Part shown: positions 22,546 through 42,307 of the stretch, in pieces
Position numbering within the stretch: the stretch's first letter is position 1
Layout: each line of letters opens with the position of its first letter
From: an uncultured Chloroflexia bacterium
GTDB lineage: Bacteria; Chloroflexota; Limnocylindria; Limnocylindrales; CSP1-4
Length of the DNA: 64,000 bases
Assembly (NCBI GenBank): GCA_963743855.1
Contig: CAVURK010000006.1
Span: 106,382 to 170,381, forward strand
Direction: 5' to 3'
The notes under the pieces: generated by a model
What the model was told of the DNA's origin: nothing
Databases searched by the model: none
The model's input: only the letters and a program-made list of their open reading frames with translations
Position numbers and translations under genes: made by a program

Positions 22546-22606
22546 CGATCGCCGACCTGGCGGGCCATCCCGCGTCGCCGGCGATCGGGTCATGCCGAGC
22601 GCGTGG

Positions 22607-22849: not shown

Positions 22850-23001
22850 GCTGCGGTCGTGAAGCCTCGGGGACTCGGGTCGAATGGACGGTCCAGTCGA
22901 CTCTGGCGGCGGAGCCTAGCATCGCCCCCGGCACTACGGCAACACGCGAAAGGTACTAGACTCCGCGCCGTTCCACCCAGCGGGGGGCAGACGGAGGGCG
23001 C

Positions 23002-23898
23002 GTGCACGACGATCCGGGGACGAGGGTCCCCGCCGCCAGCCTCCGGCGGTGCCTGGCGATTCGCCTGGTGCCGCAGTCGCCGACACTCCGCGTCCGGCGA
23101 CGATCGAGCGAGGCCCGATCGCCCAACACGTGGGTCTGCCCGTTCCTCCGGGCGATCGACGACGACGGACTGCTCGGACGTCCCGATCGAGGGACCGGAT
23201 CCGGTCAATCGCTGCGCCGCCCTCGCCGAGCCCGTCCCGCAATCGCTTCGCCAGCAGGAGCTGGTCTGCCTGACCAGCGGCCACGTCAACTGCCCGCGCT
23301 ACCTGCGCGGATCGATGGGCACGCCGGAGGCGCTCGAACGCGTGCGCGCGTCGCGGACCCTGACACCGGCGACCGTCGGCGCGCTGTCGTTGTTCGTCCT
23401 GGCCTTCGCGCTGTCGCTCGCGTTCGTGGTCGCGCAATGGGGGGCTGGCCCTGACCGCGGCCGCACCGACGCCGACCGCCGCCGGCAGCGTCCTCGGGCG
23501 AGGTGGCGACCGCAGCCGCCCGCGACGCCTCGGCGCACGCCGACGCCGACGCCGACGGCGACCTCCGAGCCGACCCCGAGCCCGTCTGCGAGCCCTTCGC
23601 CGACGCGCCAGCCCGACCACCACGCCGAGCCCCAGCCCGAGCCCGACCCCCACGCCCGCCCCGACGCCGAAGCCGACCCCGAAGCCGCCGTCGGGGGCCA
23701 GCGCGAGCCGGCTCGCGCTGCTGAAGCCGTGCCCGGACACGCCGGACTGCTACGTCTACGTCGTTCGCTCGGGCGACAACCTGTCCAGCATCGCCAACTA
23801 CTTCGGCGTGTCGTTGACCAAGGTCAAGGCGATGAACCCGTGGGTCAGCAACGGCCTGACCATCGGCCGCGGACTCCGGATCCCGCCGCCGACCCGCT
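23002..23898 (+). CDS. LysM-domain membrane protein: Cys-rich N-terminal cytoplasmic domain, one TM helix, Pro/Thr/Ser-rich linker, C-terminal LysM; at least 3 frameshifts
   Basis: GTG 23002 with GGAGGG RBS; ...WVCPFLRAIDDDGLL / ...NRCAALAEPVPQSLRQQELVCLTSGHVNCPRYLRG...TLTPATVGALSLFVLAFALSLAFVVAQ (TM); PT-rich tract 23480-23700 read in two frames; LysM CYVYVVRSGDNLSSIANYFGVSLTKVKAMNPWV...IGRGLRIPPPTR ends at 23898. Confidence 0.65.
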
Positions 23899-24051
23899 AG
23901 GCAGTCGCCCGCTCGCGGGTCCTCGCGACCGCCTGGCAGCGGCTCGCAGTCCCGAGCGCCGAGTCAGGCCAGGCGTCCAGCCGCCCCGGCACCGTCGGCC
24001 CCGACGCTCGGCCCCGAGCGAATCGCCGGACCCTCGACCGCCAATTCCGTC

Positions 24052-24079
24052 TTGACGTGCGCCGTTTCGCCGCTATAGT
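24052..24079 (+). promoter_or_regulatory. Pmra promoter: TTGACG (24052-24057), 16-nt spacer, TATAGT (24074-24079)
   Basis: Near-consensus sigma-70/sigA hexamers about 90 nt upstream of the mraZ GTG. Confidence 0.7.
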
Positions 24080-24169: not shown

Positions 24170-24600
24170 GTGTTCACCGGCGAGTACCGGCACACGGTGG
24201 ACGACAAGGGACGGATCGCCGTCCCTGTCAAGTTCCGCGCGCAGCTCGACCCGGGATCGATGGTCTCGGGCTGGCTCGACGACTGCCTCGCGATCCACAC
24301 CAAGACCGCCTGGGAGGAGCTGTCGCGAGAAGGTCGCGCGCCCTGCCGATCAGCGATCAGCGAGCACGCAGCTTCCAGCGCTACGTGTTCTCGACGGCCA
24401 GCGAGGCGCAGATGGACAAGCAGGGCCGGATCCTGCTGCCGGCCAGCATCCGCGCCTTCGTCGGGCTGACCGACGAGGCCGTCTTCGTCGGCTCACGCGA
24501 TCACGCGGAGATCTGGGCGCCCGACCGGTGGGATGCCTACCGGAAGACGCTCGACGACCCGCAGGAGCTGGCCAGGGCCTTCGAGGGCATCGGGATCTAG
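24170..24600 (+). CDS. mraZ: Transcriptional regulator MraZ; two closely spaced indels near 24320-24345
   Basis: VFTGEYRHTVDDKGRIAVPVKFRAQLDPGSMVSGWLDDCLAIHTKTAWEELS (frame A) and ...LPISDQRARSFQRYVFSTASEAQMDKQGRILLPASIRAFVGLTDEAVFVGSRDHAEIW... (ORF 24088..24600); these are the two DXXXR half-domains. Confidence 0.85.
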
Positions 24601-24662
24601 CTCGCGACCACATGCGCTTCCAGGATCCGCTCGGGATCCGATTCGTTCGGGATGGAGGAGAG

Positions 24663-25610
24663 ATGAACGAAGGGCACCTGCCGGTGCTGTTGGAGGAGGT
24701 CATCGCGATGCTCGCCCCGGCTGCCGGCAGCCTTCACATCGATACCACCCTGGGCGGCGGTGGGCACACCGAGCGGATCCTGGAGGCCGCCAACCCAGAC
24801 GGCCGGCTCCTCGGGCTCGACGCCGATCCGGCGGCGATCGCCCGGGTCGAGGCCCGGCTCCGTCCGCGGTTCGGCGATCGGCTCGTCCTCCGCCAGGCGA
24901 ACTTCCGCGACCTGGCGACCGTGGCGCCGGCGGCCGGCTTCGGGGCCGTCGACGGCTGCCTGTTCGATCTCGGGCTGTCGAGCTTCCAGCTGGCCGACAC
25001 CGACCGCGGCTTCGGCTTCCGGGCCGGCGGTCCGCTCGACATGCGCTTCGACACGAGCCGTGGCGTCCCGGCCGCCGAGCTGCTCGCGACCCTCGACACC
25101 GGCGAGCTGACGGCTCTCTTCCGACGCTACGGCGAGGAGCCGAAGGCGCCACGGATCGCCCGGGCCATCGTCGACGCGCGACGGGTCGCGCCGGTCTCGA
25201 CCGCCGAGGAGCTGGCCGCGCTCGTCGAGCGCGTCGCCCCGCCGAACCCGCGGATCCGCCGCCGGACCCACCCCGCGACGCGCGTCTTCCAGGCCCTGCG
25301 GATCGCCGTCAACGAGGAGCTCGAGGCGCTCCAGGCCGGTCTCGCCGCCGCCCTCGACCTGCTCCGACCGGGCGGCCGGCTCGTCGTCCTGAGCTACCAC
25401 TCGCTCGAGGACCGGATCGTCAAGCGGTTCTTCCAGGCCGAGCGGCGCGGCTGCGTCTGCCCGCCCGAGGTGCCGGTCTGCGTCTGCGGCCGGAACCCGC
25501 GCCTGCGGCTGGTGACCAGCCCGTCGCTGACGCCGACCGAGGCCGAGATCGCCGCCAACCCCCGAGCTCGGAGCGCCCGACTGCGGGCCGCCGAGCGTCT
25601 CGCCGCATAG
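24663..25610 (+). CDS. rsmH: 16S rRNA (cytosine1402-N4)-methyltransferase RsmH (MraW)
   Basis: MNEGHLPVLLEEVIAML...DTTLGGGGHTERIL...FDLGLSSFQLADTDRGFGFRAGGPLDMRF...; GGAGGAG RBS; intact. Confidence 0.9.
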   Translation: MNEGHLPVLLEEVIAMLAPAAGSLHIDTTLGGGGHTERILEAANPDGRLLGLDADPAAIARVEARLRPRFGDRLVLRQANFRDLATVAPAAGFGAVDGCLFDLGLSSFQLADTDRGFGFRAGGPLDMRFDTSRGVPAAELLATLDTGELTALFRRYGEEPKAPRIARAIVDARRVAPVSTAEELAALVERVAPPNPRIRRRTHPATRVFQALRIAVNEELEALQAGLAAALDLLRPGGRLVVLSYHSLEDRIVKRFFQAERRGCVCPPEVPVCVCGRNPRLRLVTSPSLTPTEAEIAANPRARSARLRAAERLAA

Positions 25611-25636
25611 CCCCGCACCGGAAGGAGGAGCCCACG

Positions 25637-26222
25637 ATGAGCAAGCGTCATCCAGTCCAGCCGTCGCAAGACCTACGGGCGCCGCCAGCACGAGGTGCGC
25701 GAGCGGCAGCGATCGCGGCCAGCACAGCGAGGGCTTCGAGTTCGAGCTCGGCGAGTGGGGCTCGGCCGCCCAGGCCGATCCGCTCGGCTTCCTCGATCCG
25801 CGCAGCCCGCGCATCCGCTTCGCGCTCGGCGACTGATCGATGGCCGTCTACGAGGGCGCCCGTCCTCGCACCATCGCGACTGCCGCGCGGTCCGCGGATC
25901 GCCGAGGGACCGACGCTCGACCGCCGCCGGGTCCGTGGCGCGTTCCGTGCCGGACGCCGGACGAACCGGCTCGGGCTCGTCCTCGGGGCGATCGTCGTGG
26001 CGTTCATGCTCGCGTTCTTCTCGCTCGCCCAGCAGGTCCGCGTGTCGGCGACCGGGCTCGACATCGGCCGGCTCGAGCTCGACCGCCAGCGGTCTCGACG
26101 ACCGGCGGCCGAGCTCCGGTCCGACCTGAACCGGCTCGGTCGCGAGCCGGCCGATCCGCAAGCAGGCCATCGACGCGGGTCTCGGGCAGCTGTCCGAGCC
26201 GATCGTCCTGACGCCGCGCTAG
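25637..26222 (+). CDS. ftsL: Cell division protein FtsL-like (TM + coiled coil); frameshifted
   Basis: ATG 25637 with GAAGGAGGAG RBS; ...NRLGLVLGAIVVAFMLAFFSLAQQVRVSATGLDIGRLELDRQR...ELRSDLNRLGREPA...; the product runs in two frames and stops at 26220-26222. Confidence 0.6.
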
Positions 26223-26237
26223 ACGATCGCGCGACCG

Positions 26238-28123
26238 ATGCTGGGCCGTACCGATTCGCGCCGCCGGCTCCTCTTCCTGCTCGTCGTCTTCGTGCGTCGG
26301 TTCGTGCCTGCTGACCGCGCGCCTCGCCTACTGGCAGGTCATCGATCGCGATCGGCTGGCCGCCGAGGCTCAGTCCCAGACGACGTCACGCTCGACGACG
26401 CCGAGCAAGCGCGGCGACATCTACGACCGGACCGGGACCGTCGTCCTGGCCACGACCGTCCAGCGCGAGCGCCTCGTCGCGGCACCCGGACCAGCTGACC
26501 CCGGACAGCAGCGCAAGGCGACCGTCGCCGACGCTGACCGGGATCCTCGGGCTCGACGACGCGGACGCCGCGGCCCTCCGCGACAAGCTGAGCGGCGACG
26601 CCAAGTACGTCATCCTCCGCCACGGCCTCGACCGCGCCGTCGCCGACCAGATCCGCGCCGCGATCGCGGCCAAGACGGTCGTCGCCGTCTCGCTCGAGCC
26701 CGAACCCGAGCGCGTCTACCCGCAGACGGGCGGCGGCCCGGACTCGAGCCTCGCCGCGCACCTGCTCGGCTTCGTCAACCGCGAGGGCGAGGGCCAGTAC
26801 GGCGTCGAGCAGGCAATACCAGTCGACGCTCGCCGGCCAGCCGCGGATCGTCGTCGCCGACCGCGACGCGAGCGGCCAGCCGATCCTCGACGACGCGACG
26901 GTCGTCCAGCCGCGGCGAGCCCGGCACGGACCTGACGCCTGACCATCGACGCCGGTCTCCAGCTGCGCGTCGAGCAGGAGCTCCTGGCGGCGTGGGTCGC
27001 CGACAAGGCCAAGCGCGCCTCGGCCGTCGTGATGGATCCGTACACCGGCGAGGTCTACGCCGATGGCGACCTATCCCGTCGTACGACGGCAACGACTACA
27101 AGGCGATCGCCGCGAGCCGATCCGTCGCGCTTCATCGATCCGGTCGTGGCCAGCGTCTACGAGCCCGGGTCGGTGTTCAAGATGATGACCGCGGCGGCCG
27201 CCCTCGACGAACGGCACCGTCACGCCGATGACCCGGATCAAGGACGTCGGGACGCTCCACCTGGACAAGGGCAAGACCAAGATCGACGACGCCGACCGCA
27301 AGGGCATGGGCTGGATGACGTTCGAGGACGGCGTCGCCTATTCGCGCAACGTCGTGGCGGCCAAGGTCGCGCTCGGGCTCGGCAAGAGCACACGGGAGTC
27401 GTCCGCGATCCTCTACGACATGTGGCGCGGCTCGGCTACGGGCAGCCGACCGGGATCGACGTCGCCGGCGAGGTCGGCGGCCTGGTGCGCGACCCGGGGC
27501 TCACGCCGTGGCGCCAGATCGACCTCGCCAACGGCGCCTTCGGGCAGGGCGTCGCGGTCACCCCGATCCAGCTGGCGACGGCCTACGCGGCGCTCGACAA
27601 CGGCGGGACGCTCGTCCAGCCGCACGTCGTCAAGTCGATCGGCGACCGCGAGGTCCAGGTCCCGGCCACGCGCGACCGCGGTCATCGATCCGTCCGTGTC
27701 GCACGACGCTGATCAAGATGATGCAGCACGTCATCACCGAGGTGCCCGTTCTACCGCGACCGGACCCTCGTCCCGGGCTACGACGTCGGCGGCAAGACCG
27801 GCACCGCGCAGATCTGGGACCCGAAGGCGAACCACGGCCGCGGCGCCTGGAAGAACAACCTGTTCAACTACTCGTTCGTCGGCTACATCGGCCGCCAGAC
27901 CGGCGTCCCGGACCTCGTCGTGGCGATCCAGATCGAGGAGGGGACACCGACCGTCGCTCCGGGTCGGCCACCTCGAGATGCCGGTGATGTCCTTCGAGCT
28001 CTTCCGGCGCATCGCGACCGATGCGATCACCACCCCCGACCTGCTGCCGACCGCGCCGACCGGCGACCCTGGCCACAGCCCCGGACCGGTGACGCACGGC
28101 CTGTGCGACACTGGCGACCGTGA
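26238..28123 (+). CDS. ftsI: Penicillin-binding protein FtsI / PBP2B-like transpeptidase; many frameshifts (more than 6)
   Basis: MLGRTDSRRRLLFLLVVFV... (TM), ...TSKRGDIYDRTGTVVLATT..., ...VMDPYTGEVYA..., ...ASVYEPGSVFKMMTAAAAL (SxxK), ...RNVVAAKVA..., ...GYDVGGKTGTAQ (KTG), ...PVMSFELFRRIATDAI; assembled across all three frames. Confidence 0.7.
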
Positions 28124-29568
28124 CCGACGTCGATCCGTCGACCCCGGCTCCGGGGCAGCCCCCGGCGCCCGCCTTCACGGCCGACGACCTGGTCCGCCTG
28201 ACCGGCGGCCGGCTCCTCGCCCGGTCCGACCGACCCATCCGCGGCGCCGCCGTCGATTCGCGCGCTGGTCCGACCCGGCGAGGTGTTCGTGGCGCTGCCC
28301 GGCGAGCGCATCGATGGGCACGCCTATCCTCGCCGACGCGGTCGCCCGGGAGCGGCCGCGCTCGTCGTCGACCCGCCAGGTCGCCGACCCGTCGACTGCT
28401 CGACGACGTGACCGTCATCCGCGTCGCCGAGCCGCTGGCCGCACTCGGGGCGCTGGCCGCCGGCTGGCGTCGCCGGTTCGATCCGCTCGTCGTCGGGGTG
28501 ACCGGGAGCATCGCCAAGACCTCGACCAAGGAGGCCATCGCGGCCGTCCTGGCCGGTCGCTTTCGGACGCTGCGCAACGAGGGCAACCAGAACAACGAGG
28601 TCGGCCTGCCGCTGACGCTCCTCCGGCTCGGGCCGGAGCACGAGGCCGCCGTCCTCGAGATGGGGATGTACGTCGGCGGCGAGATCGCCGAGCTGGCACG
28701 GATCGCCCGGCCCCGGATCGGGGTGGTGACCGCGGTCCAGCCGGTCCACCTGTCCCGGATCGGATCGCTCGAGGCGATCGAGGCGGCCAAGGGCGAGCTG
28801 CTCGAGGCGCTCCCGCCCGACGGCACCGCGATCCTCAACGCCGACGACCCGATCGTCCGCCGGATGGGCTCGCGGTCCGCGGCCCGCAGCCATCAGCTAC
28901 GGCTTCGCCGACGACGCCGACGTCGGCGCCGAGGCGGTCAGCTCGGCCGGTCTCGACGGGATGCGCTTCACGCTCCGCGCCGAGGGCACGCGCCGGCCAG
29001 TGACGATCCCGACGCTCGGGCGACTGTCGGTCCACAACGCGCTCGCGGCCGCGGCCGTCGGTCGCGCGGCCGGCCTGACGCTCGACGAGATCGAGGCGGG
29101 TCTCGCGGGCGGCTGGTCCGCGCCGCATCGGGTCCAGCTCGTCCGTCTCGGAGCCGTGACGCTGGTCGACGACACGTACAACGCCTCGCCCCGATCCGTG
29201 GTGGCCGCCCTCGAGCTGCTGGCCGGGCTGCCGGGCCGGCGGGCCGCGGTCCTCGGCGAGATGCTCGAGCTGGGCGAGGCCAGCGACGAGGGCCACCGCG
29301 TCGTCGGCGAGGCGGCCGCCCGCACGGTCGACTGGCTGGTGGTCGTCGGTCGCGGGCGCCGCCGGGATCGCCGACGGGCGCCCTGGCCGCGGGTCTCGAC
29401 CCGAGCCGCGGATCCTCCGCGTCGCCGACGCGGAGACGCGCCCGCGATGCCGTCCTGCCGCGACTGCGCGACGGCGACGTCGTCCTGGTCAAGGCCTCGC
29501 GCGGGATCGGGCTCGATCGCCTGGTCGACGGGCTCCGACACGACCTCGGCGAGCGCACCGCTCGATGA
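28120..29568 (+). CDS. murF: UDP-N-acetylmuramoyl-tripeptide--D-alanyl-D-alanine ligase MurF; frameshifted
   Basis: ...LVRLTGGRLL...GAAVDSR..., VGVTGSIAKTSTKEAIAAVL...LRNEGNQNNEVGLPLTLL (MurF NxGNxNN motif), ...AILNADDPIV..., ...LVKASRGIGLDRLVDGL...; no murE gene lies between ftsI and murF. Confidence 0.8.
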   Translation: MTDVDPSTPAPGQPPAPAFTADDLVRLTGGRLLARSDRPIRGAAVDSRAGPTRRGVRGAARRAHRWARLSSPTRSPGSGRARRRPARSPTRRLLDDVTVIRVAEPLAALGALAAGWRRRFDPLVVGVTGSIAKTSTKEAIAAVLAGRFRTLRNEGNQNNEVGLPLTLLRLGPEHEAAVLEMGMYVGGEIAELARIARPRIGVVTAVQPVHLSRIGSLEAIEAAKGELLEALPPDGTAILNADDPIVRRMGSRSAARSHQLRLRRRRRRRRRGGQLGRSRRDALHAPRRGHAPASDDPDARATVGPQRARGRGRRSRGRPDARRDRGGSRGRLVRAASGPARPSRSRDAGRRHVQRLAPIRGGRPRAAGRAAGPAGRGPRRDARAGRGQRRGPPRRRRGGRPHGRLAGGRRSRAPPGSPTGALAAGLDPSRGSSASPTRRRARDAVLPRLRDGDVVLVKASRGIGLDRLVDGLRHDLGERTAR

Positions 29569-30550
29569 CCATCGAGCTGATCCAGGGCCTCCTCCTCGCC
29601 TTCGCCCTGATGGTCATCCTGATGTCGCCGTACATCCGGCTGCTCCACGCGCTCGGCTTCGGCAAGCGGATCCGCCAGGACGGCCCGGAGAGCCACTACA
29701 TCAAGGAAGGCACGCCCACGATGGGCGGCCTGCTGATCGTCGTGGTCGTCATCGGGATCTACTTCTTCCTCCGCGAGGGCCCCGGACGCGGCGACCTTCG
29801 CCCCGCTCGCGGCGCTGGCCGGCGTCGGGCGCGCTGGGCGCCTTCGACGACTACCTCAACGCCCGGACCGGGGAGGGGATCCGTGCCCGCCAGAAGCTGA
29901 TCTGGCTGACCGTCGTCGCCGTCGTCGCGGCCTGGCAGATCCAGCAGACCTACGACATCACGGCCATCGCGGTCCCGTTCGTCGGCGCGGTCTCGGTCGA
30001 CCCGCGGATCTACGTGCTGTTCGCCGCCTTCGCGATCGTCGCCGCGGCCAACGGCGTCAACATCACCGACGGCCTCGACGGGCTGTCGGGCGGGACGGTC
30101 GCCATCGCGTTCGTCGCCTACATGCTCATCGCGCTGCTCAACACGCCGGCCCAGCCGAACCTCGCGCTCCTGTGCGCGCTGATCATCGGTGCGCTGCTCG
30201 GGTTCCTGTGGTTCAACGTCCATCCCGGCGCAGATCTTCATCGGCGACTCCGGGGCGCTGTCGCTGGGTGCCACGCTGGCGGTCACCGCGCTGATCACCG
30301 GCCAGATCCTGGTCCTCCCGCTGATCGGGATCATCTTCGTCATCGAGACCGCGTCGGTCATCCTCCAGGTCTGCGTACTTCAAGGCTGTCCGGGGGCAAG
30401 CGGCTCTTCCGGATGAGCCCGATCCATCACCACTTCGAGCTCGGCGGCTGGGACGAGGAGAAGATCACGATCCGGTTCTGGATCGTCGGCATCCTCGCCG
30501 CGCTCCTCGGCGTGACGCTCTTCCTGGCCTCGGTGGATCGGCTGCGGTGA
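29565..30550 (+). CDS. mraY: Phospho-N-acetylmuramoyl-pentapeptide transferase MraY; at least 3 frameshifts
   Basis: [59 protein letters not shown]..., ...[15 protein letters not shown]..., ...[16 protein letters not shown]..., ...[25 protein letters not shown]... Confidence 0.8.
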
Positions 30551-32123
30551 CGACGATGACGACGACCGCGACCGATCGACCTCGACCGCCTGACGATCGA
30601 CGCGATCCGTGCCGGCGCTCTGCGCGACCGGCCGGTGACGGTCCTCGGCCTCGCTCGCAGCGGTCTGGCGCTGGCCCGCTTCCTGGCCGATGCCGGGGCG
30701 CGCGTGACGATCTACGACGGCCGGTCCGCGGACGAGCTGGGCGACGCGATCGCGGCCCTGGGTGGACGGCCCGTGAGCGCTTGCCCTCGGACCGGACGTC
30801 GATCCTGCGTCGACCTGGGCCGCGGCCGAGCTGGTCGCCACCTCGCCCTCGATCACGCCCGACTACCCGACGACCGAGCCACGTCTGCGCGGCGGCGCTC
30901 CGAGCCCTGGTCGATGCCCGCGCCGGCGGCGACACGACGGTCCCGGCGCTCGTGTCCGAGGCCGACCTCTTCCTGCGGCTCTGCCCGGCCCCGACGATCG
31001 GGGTCACCGGGACCAAGGGCAAGACGACGACCGTCATCGCTTGACCGCGGCGCTCCTGGCAGCCGACCCGGGCCATCCGGTCGTCCTCGGCGGGAACATC
31101 GGGATCCCGATCGTCGAGCGACTCCTCGAGCTGACGCCCGACCATCGCGTCGTCGACGAGCTGTCCGAGCTCCAGCTGCCGACGCTGTCGCGCGGGACGA
31201 CGGTCGCGGTCTACACGAACGTCACCTCGGACCATCTCGATCGGCACGGGTCGCTCGAGGGCTACCGGCGGGTCAAGCGCCGGCTGGCCGAGCTGGTCGA
31301 TCCGACCGGCGCGCTCGTCCTCAACGCCGAGGACCCGATCGTCGCAGGCTACGCGGGTCCGGAGGGCGTGCGGACCATCCGCTACCGCCGCGACAGCCCG
31401 GCGCCCGGCGGCCTCGGCGTGGTCGACGGCTGGATCGTGGCGGACGGCGTGGGGCGGCTGGCAGTGGCCGGCGGCGGACCCGCGACGGCGACGACCAGCG
31501 GCCGGATCATGCCGGTCGACGAGCTGGCGATCCCCGGCGCGCACAACGTCTCGAACGCCCTGGCCGCGATCGCGGTCGCGCTCCTCTTCGGCGTCGAGCC
31601 GGAGGCCATCCGAGCGGCCGGCGGCGGCGTTCCACGGGCGTCGAGCACCGGCTCGAGCCCGTCGCGCTCGATCGACGGTGTCCGGTTCGTCAACGATTCG
31701 CAGGGAACCCAGCCCGACGCCGTCATCGCGGCGCTGCGCGCGTTCGACGCCCCGATCGTCCTGATCGCCGGCGGCCGCGACAAGGGGATCGACCTGACCG
31801 ACCTCGCCCCGGTCGTCGCCGAACGGGCCGCCGCCGCGGTCCTCATCGGCGAGAGCGGCCCGACGCTCGAGAGCTCGTTCCGGGCGGCCGGGCTCACCCG
31901 CACGGCACGCGCCGCGACCCTCGAGGAGGCCGTCGCGGCGGCGGATGCGATCGCGCGCGACCTCCTGGCCGGCGACCACGACGGCCCGCGCCGGGCCACC
32001 GTCCTGCTCAGCCCGGCCGCCGCCAGCTTCGACATGTTCGTGGACTATGCCGCCCGCGGCCGGGCGTTCAAGGCAGCCGTCGCGGCGCTCGCCGCCACAC
32101 GAGCCAGGGAGGGGGACCGATGA
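30547..32123 (+). CDS. murD: UDP-N-acetylmuramoylalanine--D-glutamate ligase MurD; frameshifted (N-terminus in two frames plus one internal)
   Basis: ...RPVTVLGLARSGLALARFLADAGARVTIYDGR..., ...IGVTGTKGKTTTV (P-loop), then ORF 31041..32123 ...HPVVLGGNIGIPIV...NVTSDHLDRHGSLEGY...LLSPAAASFDMF...; the stop overlaps the ftsW ATG. Confidence 0.8.
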
Positions 32124-33431
32124 ACCTCGCGCCACCGATCCCACGCCTCGAGCGGCCGCGTCGCGAGCCGATCGCCAAGGGAGACGATCGGACGACGGCC
32201 AACCGGACGCCGGTCAAGAGCCGCGCCGGGGCCGTCCGCCGCGAGCGCCACCAGGCCGACTACGTGATCCTCGTGGTCGTCGTCGCCCTGACCGCGGTCG
32301 GGATCCTGATGGTCTACTCGTCGTCCGCGCTCAAGGGCTACCTGTCGCAGGACGCCGACACGTTCGCGACCGTCGGGCCGCAGATCCAGTGGGCGATCCT
32401 CGGCATCGTCGCGATGCTCCTGATGATGCGGGTCGACTACCGCTACCTGCGCCTCGTGTCGGTGCCGTTCTACCTGTTCGCCATCGTCCTGCTCGTGCTC
32501 GTCTTCGTCCCGAGCCTCAACATCGTCGTCGGCGGGTCGGCGCGCTGGCTCAAGCTCGGGCCGCTGCCGGCGATCCATCCGGCCGAGATCGCCAAGCTCG
32601 CCCTCGTCATCTACCTGGCCCACTGGTTCGCCAAGCGCGGGAGCGGCATCCGCGGCTTCTGGGGCGGGACCGTCCCGTTCCTGATCATCGTCACGCCGAT
32701 CCTCGTCCTCGTCTTCAAGGAGCCGGACCTGGGCACGACCGGGGTCATCACGCTCACCGCGTTCACGATGTTCTTCGTCGCCGGGGCGAACATCATGCAT
32801 CTCGCGGTCATGGCCGCCGGCGGAGCGATGGCGATGATCGTCGTCGGGCTGCGCGGCTACCAGATGCAGCGGATCCTGGTCTGGCAGGACCCCTGGCTCG
32901 ACCGTCTCGGCGCCGGCTTCCACACCGTCCAGGGGCTCCTGGCGCTCGGCGTCGGCGGACTGCTCGGGACGGGTCTCGGCGGGAGCCGGGTGTCGGTGCC
33001 CAACGCGTTCAACGACTTCATCTTCGCCGAGGTCGGCCAGGAGTTCGGGATGCTCGGGCGGGATCGTCGTGATCGCCCTGTTCCTCCTGCTGGCCTACTC
33101 GGGGATCCGCATCGCGCTGTCGGCGCCCGACACGTTCGGGGCGTTGCTCGCGGCCGGGATCACCGCCTGGATCTGTCTCCAGGCGTTCGTCAACATCGGG
33201 GTGGTCGTGGCGCTGCTGCCGATCACCGGGATCACCCTGCCGTTCATCAGCGCCGGCGGGTCATCCCTCATCATCAGCTTTGCCGCGATCGGGATCCTGT
33301 TATCGATCTCGCGCGAGACCGTGGAGAAGGGGACGTGGAACGACGATGCGATTGCTGATCGCGGCGGGCGGAACGGGCGGACACATCTACCCGGCGCTCG
33401 CCGTCGCCCGCTCGCTCGGCACGACGCCTGA
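32120..33431 (+). CDS. ftsW: Peptidoglycan glycosyltransferase FtsW (SEDS family); one frameshift near 33060; the annotated 3' end overlaps murG by 86 nt, so the true stop is probably earlier
   Basis: MNLAPPIPRLE...YVILVVVVALTAVGILMVYSSSAL...; C-part ...LLAYSGIRIALSAPDTFGALLAAGITAWICLQAFVNIGVVVALLPITGITLPFISAGGSSLII... Confidence 0.8.
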
Positions 33432-34507
33432 CGCCCCCGAGCTGCGCTGGCTCGGCGGCCATCGCGGTCTGGAGGCGACGCTCGTCCCGGCGGCGCACAT
33501 CCCCCTGCGCCGCCTCGCCGCACGCTCGCTCCGGACGACCGAGGCCGACGTCCACGCCGTCCTCGACCCGATCCGCCTCGGCCTGTCCGTCCCGCAGGCG
33601 ACGGCCATCCTGCTCGCGGAGCGACCGGCCGCGATCTTCACGACCGGCGGCTACGTCGCGGTCCCGGTCCTCATCGCCGCCGCCCCGCTCGGGATCCCGG
33701 TCGTGCTGTGGGACGGCAACGTGATCCCGGGCCGCGCGGTCCGTGCCACGGCCCGACTGGCTGCGGCGCTCGCCGTCTCGTTCGACGCGACGTGCCGGGC
33801 GCTGGCCGGCGCGGCACCGGGCCGGCCGTGCTACGTGACCGGCACGCCGATCCGCGACATCCGCGCCACCGACCGGGCGGCGGCCCGGCTGCGGATGGGG
33901 ATCGCGGACGATGAGCGGGTCCTGCTCATCTTCGGCGGCTCGCAGGCCGTCCGCCGGTTCAACGCCGCCGTGGCCGAGGCCCTGCCCCGGCTGGTCGAGC
34001 GGGTGACGGTCATCCACGTCACCGGCGACGACGGCTACGCGGCCGCCCTGGCCGGGCGCGAGGGCCTCCCCGAACCGATCCGGCAGCGCTATCGGCCGTA
34101 CCCGTTCCTGCGCGACGAGATGCTGGCCGCACTCGCGGCGGCCGACCTGGTCGTCGGGCCGGGCCGGCTCATCGACGCTCGCCGAGGTGACCGCGCTGGG
34201 CCTGCCGATGGTCGTCGTGCCGTATCCGCACGCCGCCGGCCACCAGCGGGCGAACGCCGCGAGCCTGGTCGCCGCCGGGGCCGCGCGCCTGGTCGATGAC
34301 GAGGCCTTCGACGCCGGGGCGCTCGTCGAGGCCGCTGGACTCCTCGACGACCCGGTCACGCACGCGGCGATGTCGGCCGCGGCCCGGGGCCTCGGCCGGC
34401 CCGGCGCGGCCGACGCCGTCGCGGAGCTCGTCCTCGCGGCGGCGGCCCGGCTGCCCTTTCCCGAGCCGACCGAGATCGAGCGCCGCGCCCGGGGCCAGGC
34501 GGCGTGA
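33346..34507 (+). CDS. murG: UDP-N-acetylglucosamine--N-acetylmuramyl-(pentapeptide) pyrophosphoryl-undecaprenol GlcNAc transferase MurG; one frameshift near 34170
   Basis: MRLLIAAGGTGGHIYPALAVA... (G-loop 1), ...ERVLLIFGGSQAVRRFN..., C-part ...LGLPMVVVPYPHAAGHQRANAASLV... Confidence 0.85.
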
Positions 34508-35468
34508 TCGCCGGCTTCGACGCGATCGCGACCGGGACGGACATCCAGCGCCGGATCGGCGTCAAGACGTCGCGCGACGAGCCGCTCGCCCGGTTCACGA
34601 CGATGCGGGTCGGCGGCCCGGCCGACCTGTTCGCCACGGTCCACAACGCCCACGAGCTGCGCGCCCTCGTCCGCTTCGCCCGGACCCGCGGACTGCCGCA
34701 TTTCGTGCTGGGGCGGGGGAGCGACCTGGTCATCGCCGACGCCGGGATCCGCGGCCTCGTCATCCAGGTCCGGGCCGAGGGATCGCGCACCGACGGCGAA
34801 CGCTACACGGCCGAGGCCGGCATGCAGATGGCCCGCGCCGCGACCGAGACCCAGCACGCCGGCCTGACCGGTCTCGAGTTCGGGCTGGCGATCCCGGGGA
34901 CGGTCGGCGGTGCCGTCTGGGCCAACGCCGGCGCCCACGACGCCGACATCGCGGCGGTCCTCGAGTCGGCCCGCGTCCTCGCGGCCGACGGGACCGAGAC
35001 GATCGTCCCGGCCGCCGAGCTCGGGCTGTCCTATCGCGACAGCCGGTTCAAGGCGTCCGACGACGGGGCGCCGCCCGAAACGCCGCGCGATGTCGTCGTC
35101 GACGCGACATTCCGGCTCGCCGCCGCCGACCCGGACGTGATCAAGGCGACGGCTCGACGAGATCCGGCACTGGCGACAGGCACATCAGCCGCTCGGGCTG
35201 CCGTCGGCCGGGAGCGTCTTCCGCAACCCGCCGGGCGACTCGGCCGGCCGGCTGATCGAGGCGGCCGGACTCAAGGGGCTGCGGATCGGCGGCGCGGTCG
35301 TCTCCGAGAAGCACGCCAACTTCATCGTCAACGACCAGAAGGGCCGGGCGGCCGACGTCCGCCGGCTGGGCGAGCGGGTCCGGGCCGAGGTCCTCGCCCG
35401 GCACGGGGTGACGCTGGCCTTCGAGATCGAGTTCGTCGGTGACTGGACCGGCTGGGAGGCGGCGCCAT
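34504..35468 (+). CDS. murB: UDP-N-acetylenolpyruvoylglucosamine reductase MurB; frameshift near 35190
   Basis: ...RFTTMRVGGPADLFATVHNAHEL...FVLGRGSDLVIAD..., C-part ...SVFRNPPGDSAGRLIEAAGLKGLRIGGAVVSEKHANFIVN...; GTG overlaps the murG stop. Confidence 0.8.
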
Positions 35469-36587
35469 GACCGAACGGCCGCCGATCGTGGTCCTGCTCG
35501 GCGGTCCGTCGGCCGAGCACGACGTCTCGATCGTGTCCGGGACCGCGATCGCCGCGGCACTGGCCGACGAGGGCTTCGCCGTCGAGCAGGTCCTGATCGA
35601 CCTCGACGGCGCGCTGGTGGTGGCTGCCCGCCGGACATCGGCGGGACGACCGGCCGGGCGCCGCCTACGACGACCCGCCGGCGCTCGGGGCGACGGGTCC
35701 GGTCACGCTCGGTGCGGCCATCGACCGCCTGGCGGCCGCGCGGCCCGCGCCGGTCGTGGTCATCGCTCTCCACGGTCCGTTCGGCGAGGACGGCACCGTC
35801 CAGGCACTCCTCGAGGCGGCCGGGCTGGCCTACACCGGCTCGGGCGTGGCCGCCTCGGCGATCGGGATGGACAAGACGATCTTCAAGCGGCTGTGCCGCG
35901 GGATCGGCCTGCCGGTCGTCGACTGGCGCGAGGTCCATGCCGCGCGCTGGGCGAACGACCCGGCCGCCGTTCGCGCCGAGCTGACGGCCTTCACCGCCGC
36001 GACGGGCGATCCGCGGCTGATGGTCAAGCCGGCCCGCCTCGGGAGCTCGGTCGGGATCACTCTCGTCCACGATCCATCCGAGCTCGACGCCGCGCTCGAG
36101 ACGGCGTTCCGACACGACACGCTGGCACTCGTCGAGACGTACCTGGCCGGCGCCCGCGACCTCGAGGTCTCGGTCATCGGCAACGGCCCGGGAGACCTCG
36201 AGCTGTACGGACCGGGCGAGATCATCTCGGGCCACGAGTTCTACGACTATGCCGCGAAGTACACGGCCGGCCTGTCCGAGACCTCGACCCGCGCCGAGGT
36301 CACCGATCGCCAGCGGGTGACGATGCAGAAGATCGCGCGCGACGCCTACCGGGCGATCGGCGCCGAGGGGTTCGCCCGCGTCGATTTCCTGCTGGCCGGC
36401 GAGACGATCATCCTGTCCGAGATCAACACGATCCCCGGGCTTCACGCCGATCAGCCTCTTCCCGACGATGCCGGCCGAGGGCGGCTACACGTTCGGCTCG
36501 GTCTGCACCCGGATCGTCGAGCTGGCGATCGAGCGTCACGCCGCCCGGGCCGGCCGGCGCCTGACCGCCGCGGACCTGCCGCGATGA
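35467..36587 (+). CDS. ddl: D-alanine--D-alanine ligase; frameshifted
   Basis: MTERPPIVVLLGGPSAEHDVSIVSGTAIAAAL... then ...VIALHGPFGEDGTVQALLEAAGLAYTGSGVAASAIGMDK...ARVDFLL...EINTIPG(F)T...; the ATG overlaps the murB stop. Confidence 0.8.
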
Positions 36588-37456
36588 ACGGACGCCCCGT
36601 CGCGCGACGGAGTCGTGCGCCACTCCCCGGACGCCGGTCACGGCCGGTCCGCCGGGCATCGGCCGGCCTGTCCGGGGCGCGCGCCGGTGCGGGCCTCGCG
36701 ATGCTCGTGACGGCTGCGGCGATCTACGGCGTCGGTGCCTCGTCGGCCTTCGACTACCGGACGCTCGAGGTCGCGGGCGCCCGTTACACGAACACGAGCG
36801 CGGTCGAGTCGGCGCTCGCGGTGGCGCGCGGCGAGAACCTGTTCGTGCTCTCGACCAAACCGCTGCTCGCCGCGCTCGACTCGCTCCCGACCGTCCGCGC
36901 GGCCCAGGTCGACGTCCGACTGCCGGGCACGCTGGCGGTCAGCATCGATGAGCGCGTCCCGGTCATGGTCTGGCAGGTCGGTGACCGCCGCTACCTCGCC
37001 GACGCGGACGGGACCCTGTTCGCCCTGATGCCCGCCCAGCCGCCGGCCGACGCCGCCGCGCTGCCGGTCATCGACGATCGGCGGATCGAGTCGATCAACC
37101 TCGATGTCGGCAAGAGCCTCGACCCGGTCGACCTCGACGCAGCGACCCGTCTGGCGTCGCTCGTCCCGGCCGACGTCGGCAGCTCCGCGGTCTCGCTGGG
37201 TGTCAGCGTCACCGACGCCAACGGCTTCGTGGTCGCGACGCGTCCGGGCGGCTGGTCCGCGGTCTTCGGGTTCTACACGCCGAGCCTGCGGACGACCGCG
37301 ATGATCCCCGACCAGGTCCGCCTTCTGCGCAGCCTGCTCGTCGGCCGCGAGCCCGAGGTCCAGCGCGTGATCCTCGCGTCGGGGACCGACGGGACATACA
37401 CGCCGCGAGCCACGCCTCCAGCGTCGCCATCGCCCAAGCCGAGCAAGGCGCGGTGA
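36584..37456 (+). CDS. ftsQ: Cell division protein FtsQ/DivIB (TM + POTRA)
   Basis: MNGRPVARRSR...GLAMLVTAAAIYGVGASSAFDYRTLEVAGARYTNTSAVESAL...VRAAQVDVRLPGTLAVSIDERVPVMVWQVGDRRYLADADG...; the ATG overlaps the ddl stop. Confidence 0.75.
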   Translation: MNGRPVARRSRAPLPGRRSRPVRRASAGLSGARAGAGLAMLVTAAAIYGVGASSAFDYRTLEVAGARYTNTSAVESALAVARGENLFVLSTKPLLAALDSLPTVRAAQVDVRLPGTLAVSIDERVPVMVWQVGDRRYLADADGTLFALMPAQPPADAAALPVIDDRRIESINLDVGKSLDPVDLDAATRLASLVPADVGSSAVSLGVSVTDANGFVVATRPGGWSAVFGFYTPSLRTTAMIPDQVRLLRSLLVGREPEVQRVILASGTDGTYTPRATPPASPSPKPSKAR

Positions 37457-37520
37457 GTTGGCGGAGCGGGTCGCCGTCGGGTAGCCTTGCCCAAACCATT
37501 GGAGCGAGGACGACCACCCC

Positions 37521-37844
37521 GTGCTGTTACCCCTGCTCGGACTCCTCGTGGGTGTCCTGCTGGGGCTCGTCCTCAACGTCAACGTCGGGTTCGAACTCAG
37601 TCGCTATTCGGCCGTGGCGATCCTCGCCGCGCTCGATTCGGTCCTCGGCGCAGTCCGGGCCGAGCTCGACGGGGTCTACGACAATCGGATCTTCATCAGC
37701 GGGTTCCTGGTCAATGCCATCGTCGCGGTGCTCCTGACGTTCATCGGTGATCGTCTCGGTCTCGACCTGTACCTGGTGGCTCTCATCACGTTCGGCCTGC
37801 GCATCTTCGATAACGTAGCTCTCATCCGGCGCCACTTCCTGTAA
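37521..37844 (+). CDS. sbp: Small basic protein Sbp (DUF1290), membrane
   Basis: MLLPLLGLLVGVLLGLVLNVNVGFELSRYSAVAILAALDSVLGAVRAELDGVYDNRIFISGFLVNAIVAVLLTFIGDRLGLDLYLVALITFGLRIFDNVALIRR is full-length similar to B. subtilis Sbp/YlxX, which sits between divIB and ftsA. Confidence 0.75.
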   Translation: MLLPLLGLLVGVLLGLVLNVNVGFELSRYSAVAILAALDSVLGAVRAELDGVYDNRIFISGFLVNAIVAVLLTFIGDRLGLDLYLVALITFGLRIFDNVALIRRHFL

Positions 37845-37895
37845 GACCGCGACAGCGTCAACCGCGACAGCCCTTTAACGGAGACGAACGGAACG

Positions 37896-39129
37896 GTGGA
37901 ACGAGAAGCGGTCCTGGTCGGCATCGACGTCGGCACGAGCAAGGTCTGTGCGCTCATCGGCGAGGTGAGTCGCGACGGCCGGCTGACGATCATGGGCCAC
38001 GGCACCGTGCCCGCGTCCGGGCTCAAGAAGGGCGTCGTCATCAACATCGACCAGACGGTCCGCTCGATCGCGGACGCGGTCGAGCGCGCCGAGCGGCTGT
38101 CGGGCTGGAAGATCGACCGTGCCTTCGTGGGCGTCGGCGGCCAGCACGTCGAGAGCCTCAACTCGCGCGGACAGGTGGCCGTCACCGCGCACCATCGCGA
38201 GGTCACCCGCGAGGACGTCAACCGTGCGATCGAGGTCGCCCGGGCCGTCTCGATCCCGTCCAACCGGGACGTCCTCCACGTCGAGCGGCGCGGCTTCACG
38301 GTCGACGGCCAGGAGGGGGTCAAGGATCCGCTCGGGATGAGCGCGCTGCGGCTCGAGGTCGAGACGCACATCGTCACGGCGTCGGCGACCGCGGTCCAGA
38401 ACCTGACCAAGTGCGTCGCCGCGGCCGGCGTCAAGATCGACGAGCTGGTCGTGGATTCGCTCGCCTCAGCCGAGGCCGTCCTGTCCGAGACCGAGAAGGA
38501 GCTCGGGGTGGCGGTCGCCGACATGGGCGCCGGCACGATCGACCTCGCGCTCTTCCAGGACGGCTCGCCGTTCCACACGCGGGTCCTGCCGGTCGGTGGC
38601 GCGAACGTCACCAACGACGTCGCGATCGGGCTCAAGACGAGCATCCAGGTCGCCGAGGAGCTCAAGATCAAGCACGGCACGTGCGACCTCCGCCAGATCA
38701 ACCGAGGACGAGCAGATCAGCGTCTCGGTCCTCGGCGAGGACGCCGGCCGGACGGTCAGCCGGCTCGAGGTGTCGCAGATCATCGAGGCGCGGATGCGCG
38801 AGACGTTCGAGCTGTTGCGCAACGAGATCCGGGCCGCCGGGGTCGGGATGCTCCCGGCCGGGGTGATCCTGACCGGTGGCGCGTCGCAGCTGTCGGGCGC
38901 CGCCGAGCTCGGCCGCGAGGTCCTCCAGATGCCGGTCCGGGTCGCGGCACCGGCGGGGATCGGCGGGTTGGTCGACACGCTCCTCAACCCGAGCTACAGC
39001 ACCGCGGTCGGTCTTCTCCAGTGGGGCGCCGCGTCGCTCTCCGCCGGCGAGCCGAACCGCTACGAATCGGCTCCGGTGGGCGGCGGGATCGGCCGGCTGC
39101 GGGACGCGATCCGGAACATCTTCCCGTAG
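37896..39129 (+). CDS. ftsA: Cell division protein FtsA; one frameshift near 38700
   Basis: VLVGIDVGTSKVCALIGEV... (actin-fold phosphate-1), ...DMGAGTIDLALFQDG..., C-part ...AGVILTGGASQLSGAAELGREVLQMPVRVAAP... Confidence 0.85.
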
Positions 39130-39542
39130 ACACGCTCGAGCTGACGGTCCGGACCGGTCGCGGTCGCGGGCTCGTGGACCTGACCGCCGACTGCGCACGG
39201 TTCGCCGCCGACGCGTCGGGCGGCGGGGACGGACTCCTGTCGATCTTCGTCCCGCATGCGACCGCGGGCCTGGTCGTGGTCGAGGTGGGTGCGGGCTCGG
39301 ACGAGGACCTGCTTGCCGCGCTCGACCGTCTCCTGCCGCGCGACGAGGGGCTCTACCGCCATCGCCATGGGTCGCCCGGCCACGGTGCGGATCACGTCCT
39401 GCCGCTTCTCGCCCCGCCGTCGCTGACCGTCCCGGTCGTCGCCGGACGGCTCGGGCTCGGGACGTGGCAGTCGATCTGCCTGCTCGATCCGAACGCCGAC
39501 AACGAGGTCCGGACCGTCCGTCTTGCGTTGATCCCGGGCTGA
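39129..39542 (+). CDS. yjbQ: YjbQ/UPF0047 family protein inserted between ftsA and ftsZ; no canonical start codon visible at its 5' end
   Basis: [27 protein letters not shown]...[17 protein letters not shown]...LLP...[19 protein letters not shown]...[15 protein letters not shown]...R.VRLALIPG matches the YjbQ signature; the frame is open straight from the ftsA stop. Confidence 0.6.
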
Positions 39543-39762
39543 CCGCGCATGGTGCCTCGGACCTGTCGCCGGCCGGTGCACCGGGGCACCACTCCGGGGC
39601 CGAAAAGAGGCCCGAACGGCGAGGTTGGGCCACCCACCGAGCCCCGTCGGGCGGTATACTCCCGCCAACCCAACGGACCCGCTCAGCACCGGGAAAGGCC
39701 ACCCGGGTCCACACGAGCCACCGTCGCGCAGAATCCCAACGTGGGTCGCTGAGGAGAGCCCG

Positions 39763-41010
39763 ATGCCGTTGCGTTCCGATTCCGAGAACTTCGCGCTGAT
39801 CCGCGTCATCGGCGTCGGCGGCGGAGGGAGCAACGCCGTCAACCGGATGATCCGGGCGGAGATGATGGGGGTCGAGTTCATCGCCCTCAACACCGACGCG
39901 CAGGCGCTGCTCCAGGCGGACGCACCGCACAAGATCCGGATCGGCGACAAGATCACCCGGGGCCTCGGGGCCGGCGGTGATTCGTCGATCGGACAACGCG
40001 CCGCGGAAGAGGACTCGGAGAAGATCAGCGCGGCGCTCGTCGACTCGGACATGGTCTTCATCACCGCGGGGCTCGGTGGCGGCACCGGCTCGGGCGCGGC
40101 CCCGGTGGTCGCCCAGATCGCCAAGGAGACAGGTGCGCTGACGATCGGCGTGGTGACCAAGCCGTTCACCTTCGAGGGCGCCAAGCGCAAGCTCGTGGCC
40201 GAGAAGGCCGCTGAAGAGCTCAAGGCGCAGGTCGACACCCTGATCACGATCCCCAACGACCGGCTGAAGGACGTCGTCCAGAAGGACACCAGCATCCTCG
40301 ACGCGTTCCGCGTCGTCGACGACGTCCTGCGCCAGGGCGTCCAGGGCATCAGCGACATCATCACCATGCCAGGACTCATCAATCTCGATTTCGCCGACGT
40401 CCGCGCGATCATGCGCGACGCGGGCTCCGCCCTCATGGGGATCGGCCGGGCGTCGGGCGAGAACCGCGCCGTCGAGGCGGCCCGCCAGGCCATCGCCAGC
40501 CCGTTGCTCGAGGTCGACATCGCCGGCGCCCAGGGCATCCTGTTCAACATCACCGGCTCGTCGACGCTCAGCCTGTTCGAGGTCACCGAGGCGGCCGAGG
40601 AGATCCGCGCCGCCGCCGATCCGGAGGCGAACATCATCTTCGGGACGAGCTTCAACGAGCGGCTCGGCGACGAGGTCATGATCACCGTCATCGCGACCGG
40701 CTTCGATGGTGGCAAGAAGCGCCACGTCAACCGTCACGAGGCGACCGCGGTGATGGACTCGAGTGCCACCGCCCGACCGTCCCGCGAGCGCGACTTCCTC
40801 GAGGAGCTCCAGCGCCAGCGCGAGGAAGTCGCCGACGGCGGCTCCTATCCGTCCTCGACCCCGACGTCGTCGCCGCTCGACGATCAGGCGGCCGCCGTGC
40901 TCGCGGCGCCTCGCGTCGAACGATCGGTCGGGGAGCCGACGCCGGCCAAGCGGTCGACCACGTACGACGCGGACGATCTCGAGATCCCGAGCTTCCTCCG
41001 CCGCAAGTGA
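39763..41010 (+). CDS. ftsZ: Cell division GTPase FtsZ (intact)
   Basis: [30 protein letters not shown]...[17 protein letters not shown]...[18 protein letters not shown] (tubulin signature)...; GAGGAG RBS. Confidence 0.93.

Positions 41011-42230: not shown

Positions 42231-42307
<77 letters not shown>

Follow-up and report, generated by a model that had tools for sequence, protein, structure and literature searches.

A dcw cluster of Candidatus Limnocylindria without murE and murC, and with a yjbQ gene that lacks a canonical start codon at the ftsA stop

The window analysed here, a 64-kb stretch of contig CAVURK010000006.1, contains a division and cell wall (dcw) cluster between positions 24170 and 41010, with all genes on the + strand in the order mraZ-rsmH-ftsL-ftsI-murF-mraY-murD-ftsW-murG-murB-ddl-ftsQ-sbp-ftsA-yjbQ-ftsZ. 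Genes were placed in three ways: by third-position GC, by Pfam searches of stop-to-stop segments, and by tblastn with queries from a clean short-read relative locus (L005), whose proteins also served as references for NCBIfam scoring. Spurious open reading frames (ORFs) are abundant here because of the high GC content. The gene order and coordinates of the original prediction, read from the sequence alone, prove exact by Pfam, tblastn and junction reading. Related loci come from a scan of one genome per species in GTDB with the intact part of the window MurD as query; the best 80 loci (numbered with L) were compared over 21 kb per locus, and junction counts cover only the loci that span the junction in question (69 for ftsI/murF, 72 for murG/murB and 57 for ftsA to ftsZ). 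Taken as a whole, the region is very probably a chromosomal dcw operon in the standard layout for Limnocylindria, with murE and murC encoded elsewhere, frame breaks that are sequence errors, and a yjbQ gene that is real and selected.

The cluster encodes the lipid II steps MurB, MurD, MurF, Ddl, MraY and MurG, the septal synthase pair FtsW/FtsI, the divisome proteins FtsL, FtsQ, FtsA and FtsZ, and the regulator and methyltransferase pair MraZ/RsmH, together with two small lineage-typical additions, Sbp (DUF1290) and YjbQ (UPF0047). At its 5' end, mraZ (24170-24600, from GTG 24170 to TAG 24598-24600) gives 50 bits with the Pfam MraZ model; its frame is broken near 24326/24339, and the tblastn match runs in frame 2 and then in frame 1. 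The rsmH (mraW) gene (24612-25610) is an intact ORF with 340 bits to Methyltransf_5, no internal stop and 80% identity to the L005 protein over residues 1-331. The FtsL-like region that follows (25611-26239) has several frame breaks and matches L005 ORFs in tblastn at 25614-25833 and 25880-26152; its FtsL identity is weak, the L005 ortholog scoring 30.9 bits against FtsL_Actino, below the cutoff of 55. The class B penicillin-binding protein gene ftsI (26240-28092, start approximate, stop TGA 28090-28092) is about 1.85 kb long and appears as fragments of the Pfam Transpeptidase domain separated by many frame breaks. Frame breaks also run through murF (28089-29568; Mur_ligase_M and _C) and mraY (29565-30550; MraY_sig1 and Glycos_transf_4, with tblastn matches in three frames). 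The murD gene (30556-32123) was recognised by tblastn and by the MurD-like_N, Mur_ligase_M and _C domains, its ortholog passes TIGR01087 with 326 bits, and its frame breaks near 30574 and 30779. Its apparent start, ATG 30556, lies five nt past the mraY stop, with a frame-shifting extra base about 18 nt further on.

In the second half of the cluster, ftsW (32120-33431) matches FTSW_RODA_SPOVE in two frames, with a break near 33059, and murG (33346-34507, from ATG 33346) carries the N- and C-terminal Glyco_transf_28 domains and a break near 34159. They are followed by murB (34504-35470; FAD_binding_4 and MurB_C; break near 35148), ddl (35467-36587; Dala_Dala_lig_N and _C; tblastn matches in three frames; breaks near 35612 and 36440) and a divIB-like ftsQ (36584-37456; POTRA_1, 37 bits). 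The sbp gene (37521-37844) is intact, scores 116 bits with PF06947 against a gathering score of 24.4, and is 85% identical to its L005 counterpart. It is the most constrained gene of the cluster, with a ratio of nonsynonymous to synonymous substitution rates (dN/dS) of 0.00-0.03, compared with 0.11-0.16 for ftsZ, and this small protein of unknown function thus appears to be under very strong selection in the lineage. The ftsA gene (37896-39129; SHS2_FTSA and FtsA; stop TAG 39127-39129) contains one +1 insertion near 38702, so that its tblastn match passes from frame 3 to frame 1, and ends in the conserved tail ...RNIFP*. An intact yjbQ of 138 codons (39126-39542, counted from GTA 39126-39128) lies between it and ftsZ (39763-41010; Tubulin and FtsZ_C), which is intact at 415 amino acids and has a conserved ATG and Shine-Dalgarno sequence (AGGAGA, 7 nt upstream of ATG 39763); the start of ftsZ is thus this ATG, and not the first TTG of the ORF (39625) as had been predicted.

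Six canonical 4-nt overlaps can be read directly in the window: GTGA at ftsI/murF (28089-28092, with GTG 28089-91 and TGA 28090-92) and murG/murB (34504-34507), and ATGA at murF/mraY (29565-29568), murD/ftsW (32120-32123), murB/ddl (35467-35470) and ddl/ftsQ (36584-36587). The two GTGA junctions confirm the direct ftsI/murF and murG/murB overlaps that had been predicted. Among the related loci, the 4-nt overlap recurs at ftsI/murF in 62/69, at murF/mraY in 68, at murD/ftsW in 76 and, as ATGA or GTGA, at murG/murB in 65/72. This tight packing, with 4-nt stop/start overlaps at most genes, implies that the genes are likely co-transcribed and translationally coupled. A longer overlap is found at ftsW/murG, where murG begins, with its ATG, 86 nt before ftsW ends (33346-33431); an overlap of about 90 nt is present in 74/74 loci spanning that junction.

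The layout itself is shared throughout the comparison set. Gene order is identical in 80/80 related species-level loci, as far as each extends, and yjbQ lies between ftsA and ftsZ in 49/57 loci spanning both. By Pfam and tblastn the cluster opens with mraZ-rsmH and closes with ftsA-ftsZ on one strand, as a dcw cluster should, and the internal order ftsL-ftsI-...-murF-mraY-murD-ftsW-murG-...-ddl-ftsQ is kept as in the E. coli record and the 80 related loci. The cluster had been called unusual, which holds when it is set beside textbook organisms and fails within Limnocylindria, where this layout is standard (80/80 loci); it is unusual only in the former comparison.

The nearest relatives are metagenome-assembled genomes (MAGs) of Chloroflexota: of the 80 loci with the best MurD matches, nearly all bear the label Chloroflexota, Chloroflexia or Candidatus Limnocylindria/Limnocylindrales, with MurD amino-acid identities to the window of 67-77%. 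The whole 17 kb is collinear with Limnocylindria loci at 79-85% nucleotide identity, the best relative (L001) reaching 85% DNA identity across its full length, and the YjbQ homologs carry Candidatus Limnocylindrales or Chloroflexota names at NCBI. Going by the depositors' MAG labels and this DNA collinearity, the host is a member of Candidatus Limnocylindria (formerly Ellin6529), a class of Chloroflexota. The comparison with Chloroflexi that had been proposed alongside the original prediction leads to Limnocylindria MAGs with the same layout. The suggestion made there of a hybrid of actinobacterial and firmicute features does not stand. An origin in an unusual Actinobacterium or a high-GC Firmicute, or a mosaic of both, to which the high GC and the Bacillus-like sbp-ftsA-ftsZ arrangement might point, is highly improbable, as all close homologous loci and YjbQ homologs belong to Chloroflexota or Limnocylindria. 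The GC of the region (0.70-0.76) is also normal for the class, with Limnocylindria genomes having a mean GC of 68.9% (PMC10608941). The same Limnocylindria-type cluster is found on five contigs deposited as Saccharimonadales, Verrucomicrobiia or Anaerolineaceae MAGs (L064, L072, L004, L024 and L026); their MurD identities are 70-75%, and they are probably mis-binned or mislabelled.

Within the cluster, the only Mur ligases are those of murD and murF, and the full murC/murD/murE/murF set of the longest dcw form is not present. Pfam finds a single set of Mur-ligase M and C domains between ftsI and mraY, and by its profile scores this ligase is MurF: the L005 ortholog reaches 360.9 bits with TIGR01143 (cutoff 288.6), compared with 106 bits for the MurE model (cutoff 257), and E. 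coli MurF aligns with the window in three pieces that lie in different frames, at 44-46% identity. With E. coli queries taken from the annotated K-12 record, MurE and MurC find no match outside murF and murD in the 64-kb window or the 80 related loci, in agreement with the prediction that both genes are missing from the cluster. MurF and MurD paralog queries likewise detect no third Mur ligase in tblastn, and none lies within about 10 kb in any related locus. The direct GTGA overlaps at ftsI/murF and murG/murB leave no room for murE or murC, a ligase gene being 1.4-1.5 kb. With purifying selection acting on the remainder of the pathway, murE and murC would have to be encoded elsewhere in the genome, an inference that is a weak point of the overall interpretation. 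That murE or murC is instead present and masked by sequencing errors, for example with a long ftsI that is really two genes, might be entertained because frameshifts are plentiful and ORF lengths alone cannot be trusted, but it is refuted for practical purposes by the single ligase domain set, by the lack of E. coli MurE and MurC matches, by the same GTGA junctions in clean short-read relatives, by the direct junctions in 69-72 related loci, and by the end-to-end alignment of ftsI with the FtsI of relatives, in which L005 residues 25-609 cover 26311-28088 in three frames with MurF directly after and no second gene. The outcome that the original prediction had named as its own refutation, an ftsI that conceals two genes, is not what the alignment shows.

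In comparison with the E. coli dcw cluster (mraZ-rsmH-ftsL-ftsI-murE-murF-mraY-murD-ftsW-murG-murC-ddlB-ftsQ-ftsA-ftsZ), the window has the same boundaries, the same order of shared genes, a single strand and many overlaps, but it lacks murE and murC and contains sbp, yjbQ and murB, the last of which lies outside the cluster in E. coli. The B. subtilis cluster runs ...murE-mraY-murD-spoVE-murG-murB-divIB-ylxW-ylxX-sbp-ftsA-ftsZ. It resembles the window in having murB after murG, no murC, and sbp directly upstream of ftsA-ftsZ, whereas murE is inside and murF and ddl outside in Bacillus, the reverse of the window, which also lacks ylxW/ylxX and has a yjbQ that is absent from the Bacillus cluster. 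Loss of murC, murB and ddl from the dcw cluster is common, and a Chloroflexi ancestor with sub-clusters has been described (PMC8871954), while Gram-positive or non-rod species do not maintain a common order of the dcw genes (PMC10214165); departures of the murC type are thus a known and common variation (PMC8871954, PMC10214165). Our literature search found no paper describing the Limnocylindria dcw layout.

The coding frame switches within genes throughout the cluster, as had been suspected from the sequence: 1-nt indels break up most genes into pieces in two or three frames, with gene content unchanged. The tblastn matches show at least 15 net changes of frame, which fall in mraZ, ftsI, murF, mraY, murD, ftsW, murG, murB, ddl and ftsA, while rsmH, sbp, yjbQ and ftsZ are intact. 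A nine-way DNA alignment, from which we counted window-unique indels with lengths that are not multiples of three, gives 61 such candidate events in 17 kb. About 50 of these are +1 insertions, mostly outside homopolymers, and insertions exceed deletions by about 7:1 among the window-specific frame-breaking indels (24326-39694). Noise in the alignment of variable regions inflates the total of 61, relatives scoring 7-43 by the same method, and this counts against our interpretation; the extra base near the murD start (30556-30580), in turn, was not caught by the list. Roughly 48 of the 61 indels fall within 25.6-31.7 kb, and rsmH and ftsZ have none; this local clustering may reflect a low-coverage stretch of the assembly.

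We compared dN/dS per gene between the window and three relatives, ignoring the window indels and taking relative versus relative as the benchmark. The window values equal those among relatives for every gene, for instance 0.24-0.27 versus 0.23-0.29 in ftsI, 0.19-0.23 versus 0.18-0.26 in murF, and 0.10-0.12 versus 0.10-0.13 in mraY. Since dozens of frameshifts coincide with no relaxation of selection and a strong insertion bias, the frame breaks point to insertion-type assembly or sequencing errors, left in the consensus of an unpolished assembly, rather than to gene decay, and no gene is hidden by them. The alternative is that the breaks are real and the host is losing peptidoglycan synthesis, its mur and fts genes having become pseudogenes. 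Dehalococcoidia offer a precedent, having lost peptidoglycan and dcw genes while retaining mraZ-rsmH and ftsA-ftsZ (PMC10608941), and in the window too the breaks concentrate in ftsI, murF, mraY and murD and spare rsmH, sbp, yjbQ and ftsZ. However, ftsA and mraZ are broken as well, and the per-gene dN/dS of the broken genes is indistinguishable from that of relatives, on which ground we reject this very unlikely reading. The insertion excess is also the opposite of the usual bacterial indel bias, which favours deletions.

The remaining departure from textbook clusters is yjbQ. Its product matches PF01894 (UPF0047) with 80.3 bits (cutoff 27) over profile positions 1-115 of 117, and eight members of the family in the PDB were matched, including 2p6h, 1xbf, 1vmh and 1ve0, with structural alignments that begin at residue 3. 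With TIGR00149 ('secondary thiamine-phosphate synthase enzyme'), the score of the L005 ortholog is 66.4 bits, compared with a hypothetical-equivalog cutoff of 67.75. The protein resembles the family over its full length, as a single domain of about 135 amino acids, and what sets it apart is that the gene is embedded between ftsA and ftsZ, here and in 49/57 related genomes. No link between YjbQ and cell division has been reported as far as we found, a literature search for YjbQ with ftsZ giving no relevant paper.

As had been noticed at the outset, yjbQ has no recognisable start: there is no ATG, GTG or TTG at its N-terminus in the window. The end of ftsA reads AAC ATC TTC CCG TAG, with the stop at 39127-39129, and from 39126 the yjbQ frame, which is -1 with respect to that of ftsA, gives GTA GAC ACG CTC GAG CTG ACG GTC CGG ACC GG... 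and meets no stop for 138 codons. The first triplet, GTA 39126-39128, overlaps the ftsA stop as GTAG, the same -4 geometry as ATGA and GTGA. Two states can be distinguished among the relatives. In the first (about 27 genomes), a spacer of 3-50 nt separates ftsA from yjbQ, which opens with an ATG, GTG or TTG of its own and may lie in any frame with respect to ftsA. The second is that of the window and at least 21 related genomes, some assembled from short and some from long reads; here the conserved YjbQ N-terminus (x-[D/E/R]-T-R-E-L-T-V-R-T-G) starts exactly at the ftsA stop, invariably in the -1 frame and without an intervening stop. Its first codon is GTA in 21 genomes and ATA in one, so that the overlaps are GTAG, GTAA or ATAG, and it aligns exactly with the ATG, GTG or TTG of relatives that have their own start. 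None of the other operon junctions shows a non-canonical start/stop form, and no conserved canonical yjbQ start is found upstream or downstream in the second-state genomes.

In these genomes, yjbQ is intact at 135-140 codons and conserved from codon 2 onward, with a median dN/dS of 0.22 over 190 pairs (0.15-0.16 for the window versus its nearest relatives), and purifying selection is equal in genomes with canonical starts and with GTA or ATA. By this pattern of substitution, yjbQ is a real gene under purifying selection. Its missing start is not a sequence error. Public annotations of it disagree, giving 173 amino acids (upstream GTG), 133 (CTG, NCBI) or 122 (downstream GTG), all of which look wrong.

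Close relatives whose YjbQ begins with MK-, VK- or VN-TRELT have an ordinary ftsA stop, which a spacer of either 72 or 6 nt separates from an ATG or GTG. The 6-nt spacer is the first 6 nt of the 72-nt one, and the resulting series across relatives (72, 6 and -4 nt) suggests that the spacer shrank stepwise until the last deletion took the yjbQ start codon. We also considered GTAG as a point-mutated GTGA and rejected this, since the MK/VK-TRELT relatives have a TAG or TAA stop and a 6- or 72-nt spacer rather than an ATGA/GTGA overlap. In a neighbour-joining tree of FtsZ and RsmH, most of the second-state genomes group with the window in a single large clade; three nested lineages carry a canonical start behind a short insertion, and yjbQ has been lost from two. 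Larger inserts between the ftsA stop and yjbQ occur in L025 and L049 (about 2 kb) and in L021 (0.7 kb, with a 233-codon ORF), where yjbQ has its own GTG or TTG. In L082 (ENA contig_6801, 588 kb), yjbQ follows ftsA after a 72-nt spacer and ftsZ is not downstream, its place being taken by an opposite-strand CitMHS-family transporter; the cluster is thus broken past yjbQ, which stays beside ftsA.

How yjbQ would be translated can be framed by the other junctions of the operon. Overlaps of -4 nt of the ATGA/GTGA type are associated with translational coupling by termination-reinitiation (PMC6728339, PMC10666635, PMC12548453). The ftsA/yjbQ junction resembles them in being a 4-nt stop/start overlap between co-directional genes in which the first codon begins 1 nt before the upstream stop, and six canonical examples stand in the same operon. 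It differs in that the ftsA stop is TAG or TAA rather than TGA, so that the overlapping codon is GTA or ATA and not a canonical NTG. We propose that, in the clade of the window, the yjbQ start codon was deleted together with the spacer, that GTA (ATA in one genome) over the ftsA stop became the first codon, and that a ribosome ending ftsA would restart 2 nt upstream on this degenerate RUA codon, probably at low efficiency. Termination-reinitiation at the overlapping RUA codon is the likeliest single account of YjbQ synthesis, and we hold it tentatively. It is favoured by the exact coincidence of GTA/ATA with the ancestral start position, by the same coupling geometry at other junctions of the operon, and by the only variant being ATA, a recognised rare start. 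The first base of the RTA codon is moreover a purine in 22/22 genomes, compared with a pyrimidine in 7/32 others (FtsA last codon CCC or CCT), a bias whose one-sided p of about 0.02 holds only with phylogeny ignored and is to that extent a weakness of the proposal.

Further points weigh against reinitiation. GUA pairs with the initiator anticodon at the middle base only, no documented natural GUA start was found in the literature, and -4 overlaps have been described solely as ATGA/GTGA (PMC10666635). A GGAG lies 9 nt upstream of GTA in 19/22 genomes, but it is also present in clade-mates without yjbQ and may reflect phylogenetic inertia. The preprint text of a study of all 64 start codons (Hecht et al. 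2017) makes no mention of GTA, and no efficiency value for GUA is therefore given here.

The alternative that survives best is a different yjbQ start, either an in-frame GTG at -105 nt inside ftsA, the CTG at codon 6, or a downstream GTG, which we consider unlikely while granting it some weight. All three are used by public annotations, and a GTG at -105 or -102 is present in 20/22 genomes. This upstream GTG, however, is a by-product of the FtsA LLQWGA motif and equally frequent in genomes without yjbQ, it is cut off by an in-frame stop in L017 and L069, and the 35-residue extension it would add is Arg/Gly/Pro-rich out-of-frame sequence; we therefore reject it as a dedicated yjbQ start. The CTG at codon 6 occurs in only about 9/22 genomes, with CTC in about 10. 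The first downstream ATG, GTG or TTG may come as early as codon 15 or as late as codon 101, and L056 has none; a YjbQ truncated in this way would lose part of its fold, since the structural homologs align from residue 3.

Next comes an FtsA-YjbQ fusion, in which the ribosome would pause at a slow Pro-stop (CCG-UAG) peptidyl-tRNA-Pro would slip by -1 on C-CCG, and synthesis would go on in the yjbQ frame; this too we regard as unlikely. It would account for yjbQ being always exactly in the -1 frame with no stop between, and TTC-CCG provides a C-CCG run in 21/22 genomes, with GGAG upstream. Programmed -1 frameshifting of the dnaX type shares the -1 frame and the upstream Shine-Dalgarno-like GGAG, whereas here a slippery heptamer X-XXY-YYZ is mostly lacking (C-TTC-CCG in most genomes, with only L036 having T-TTC-CCG), there is no conserved RNA structure downstream of the junction (RNAalifold, 20 sequences, -0.44 kcal/mol, no covarying pairs), and the shift would fall at a stop codon. 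In L039, C-TTT-CCA would slip poorly and yet yields ATA, the rare start noted above, and CCC, the best slip codon, never occurs in the second-state group though it is found in others. In relatives, moreover, YjbQ is free-standing, translated from a start of its own behind spacers of differing length, and a C-terminal fusion would bury the amphipathic helix in which FtsA ends. Other explanations of yjbQ expression share what likelihood remains. Among them, A-to-I editing of GUA to GUI was dropped, as the known TadA motif UACG is absent and the junction reads UAGA.

Downstream of yjbQ, a conserved TATACTCC box (the TATACT box; 39655-39662, + strand) is a candidate -10 element, found in 42 related loci at 77-140 nt upstream of the ftsZ ATG. 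Together with the ribosome-binding site of ftsZ, this conserved box indicates that ftsZ probably has an additional promoter of its own. A sigma-70 consensus scan upstream of ftsZ called no promoter despite the conserved TATACT, because a -35 match is lacking. The inverted arms GGACCCG...CGGGTCC, in the presumed ftsZ 5' untranslated region of the window subclade, have no covariation support, and Rfam gives no match inside the cluster.

Upstream of the cluster, a full-length RNase P RNA of bacterial class A (RF00010, 178.6 bits) lies at 22169-22542 on the + strand, about 1.6 kb before mraZ; the 21-24 kb stretch that contains it matches 20-55 related loci at the DNA level. Between this RNA and mraZ is a 487-codon ORF (22592-24055, + strand) without a Pfam match, in a region that is syntenic in relatives; it gives low-complexity tblastn matches to the Pro/Ala-rich FtsQ tail. 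On the 3' side, ftsZ is followed by genes for a YggS/YlmE-type pyridoxal phosphate protein and YggU, and then by a tRNA gene (RF00005, 71.5 bits) at 42232-42305 on the + strand. Towards its ends the window carries unrelated housekeeping genes, with no third Mur ligase among them; their functions are methylmalonyl-CoA mutase, succinyl-CoA synthetase, succinate dehydrogenase, aconitase, glycine cleavage and a peptide ABC transporter.

The cluster thus places the organism in Chloroflexota/Limnocylindria, and its 'missing' murE and murC are the normal layout of the class rather than an anomaly. This class-wide arrangement, with murF and ddl inside, murE and murC outside, and sbp and yjbQ added, is a data point for dcw evolution in Terrabacteria. 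The ftsA/yjbQ junction is in addition a clean natural test case for start-codon degeneracy under translational coupling, the same ortholog opening with ATG, GTG or TTG behind a spacer in some species and with GTA or ATA on the stop in at least 22 others. It is possible, if doubtful, that in a large Limnocylindria clade yjbQ has been translated over long evolutionary time without a canonical start, by reinitiation on GUA or AUA over UAG or UAA. If this is true, there would be a class of -4 overlaps of the form RTAG/RTAA, which current surveys and gene finders treat as impossible; such hidden genes would be systematically mis-annotated, and start-codon identity would be relaxed far beyond NTG in termination-reinitiation.

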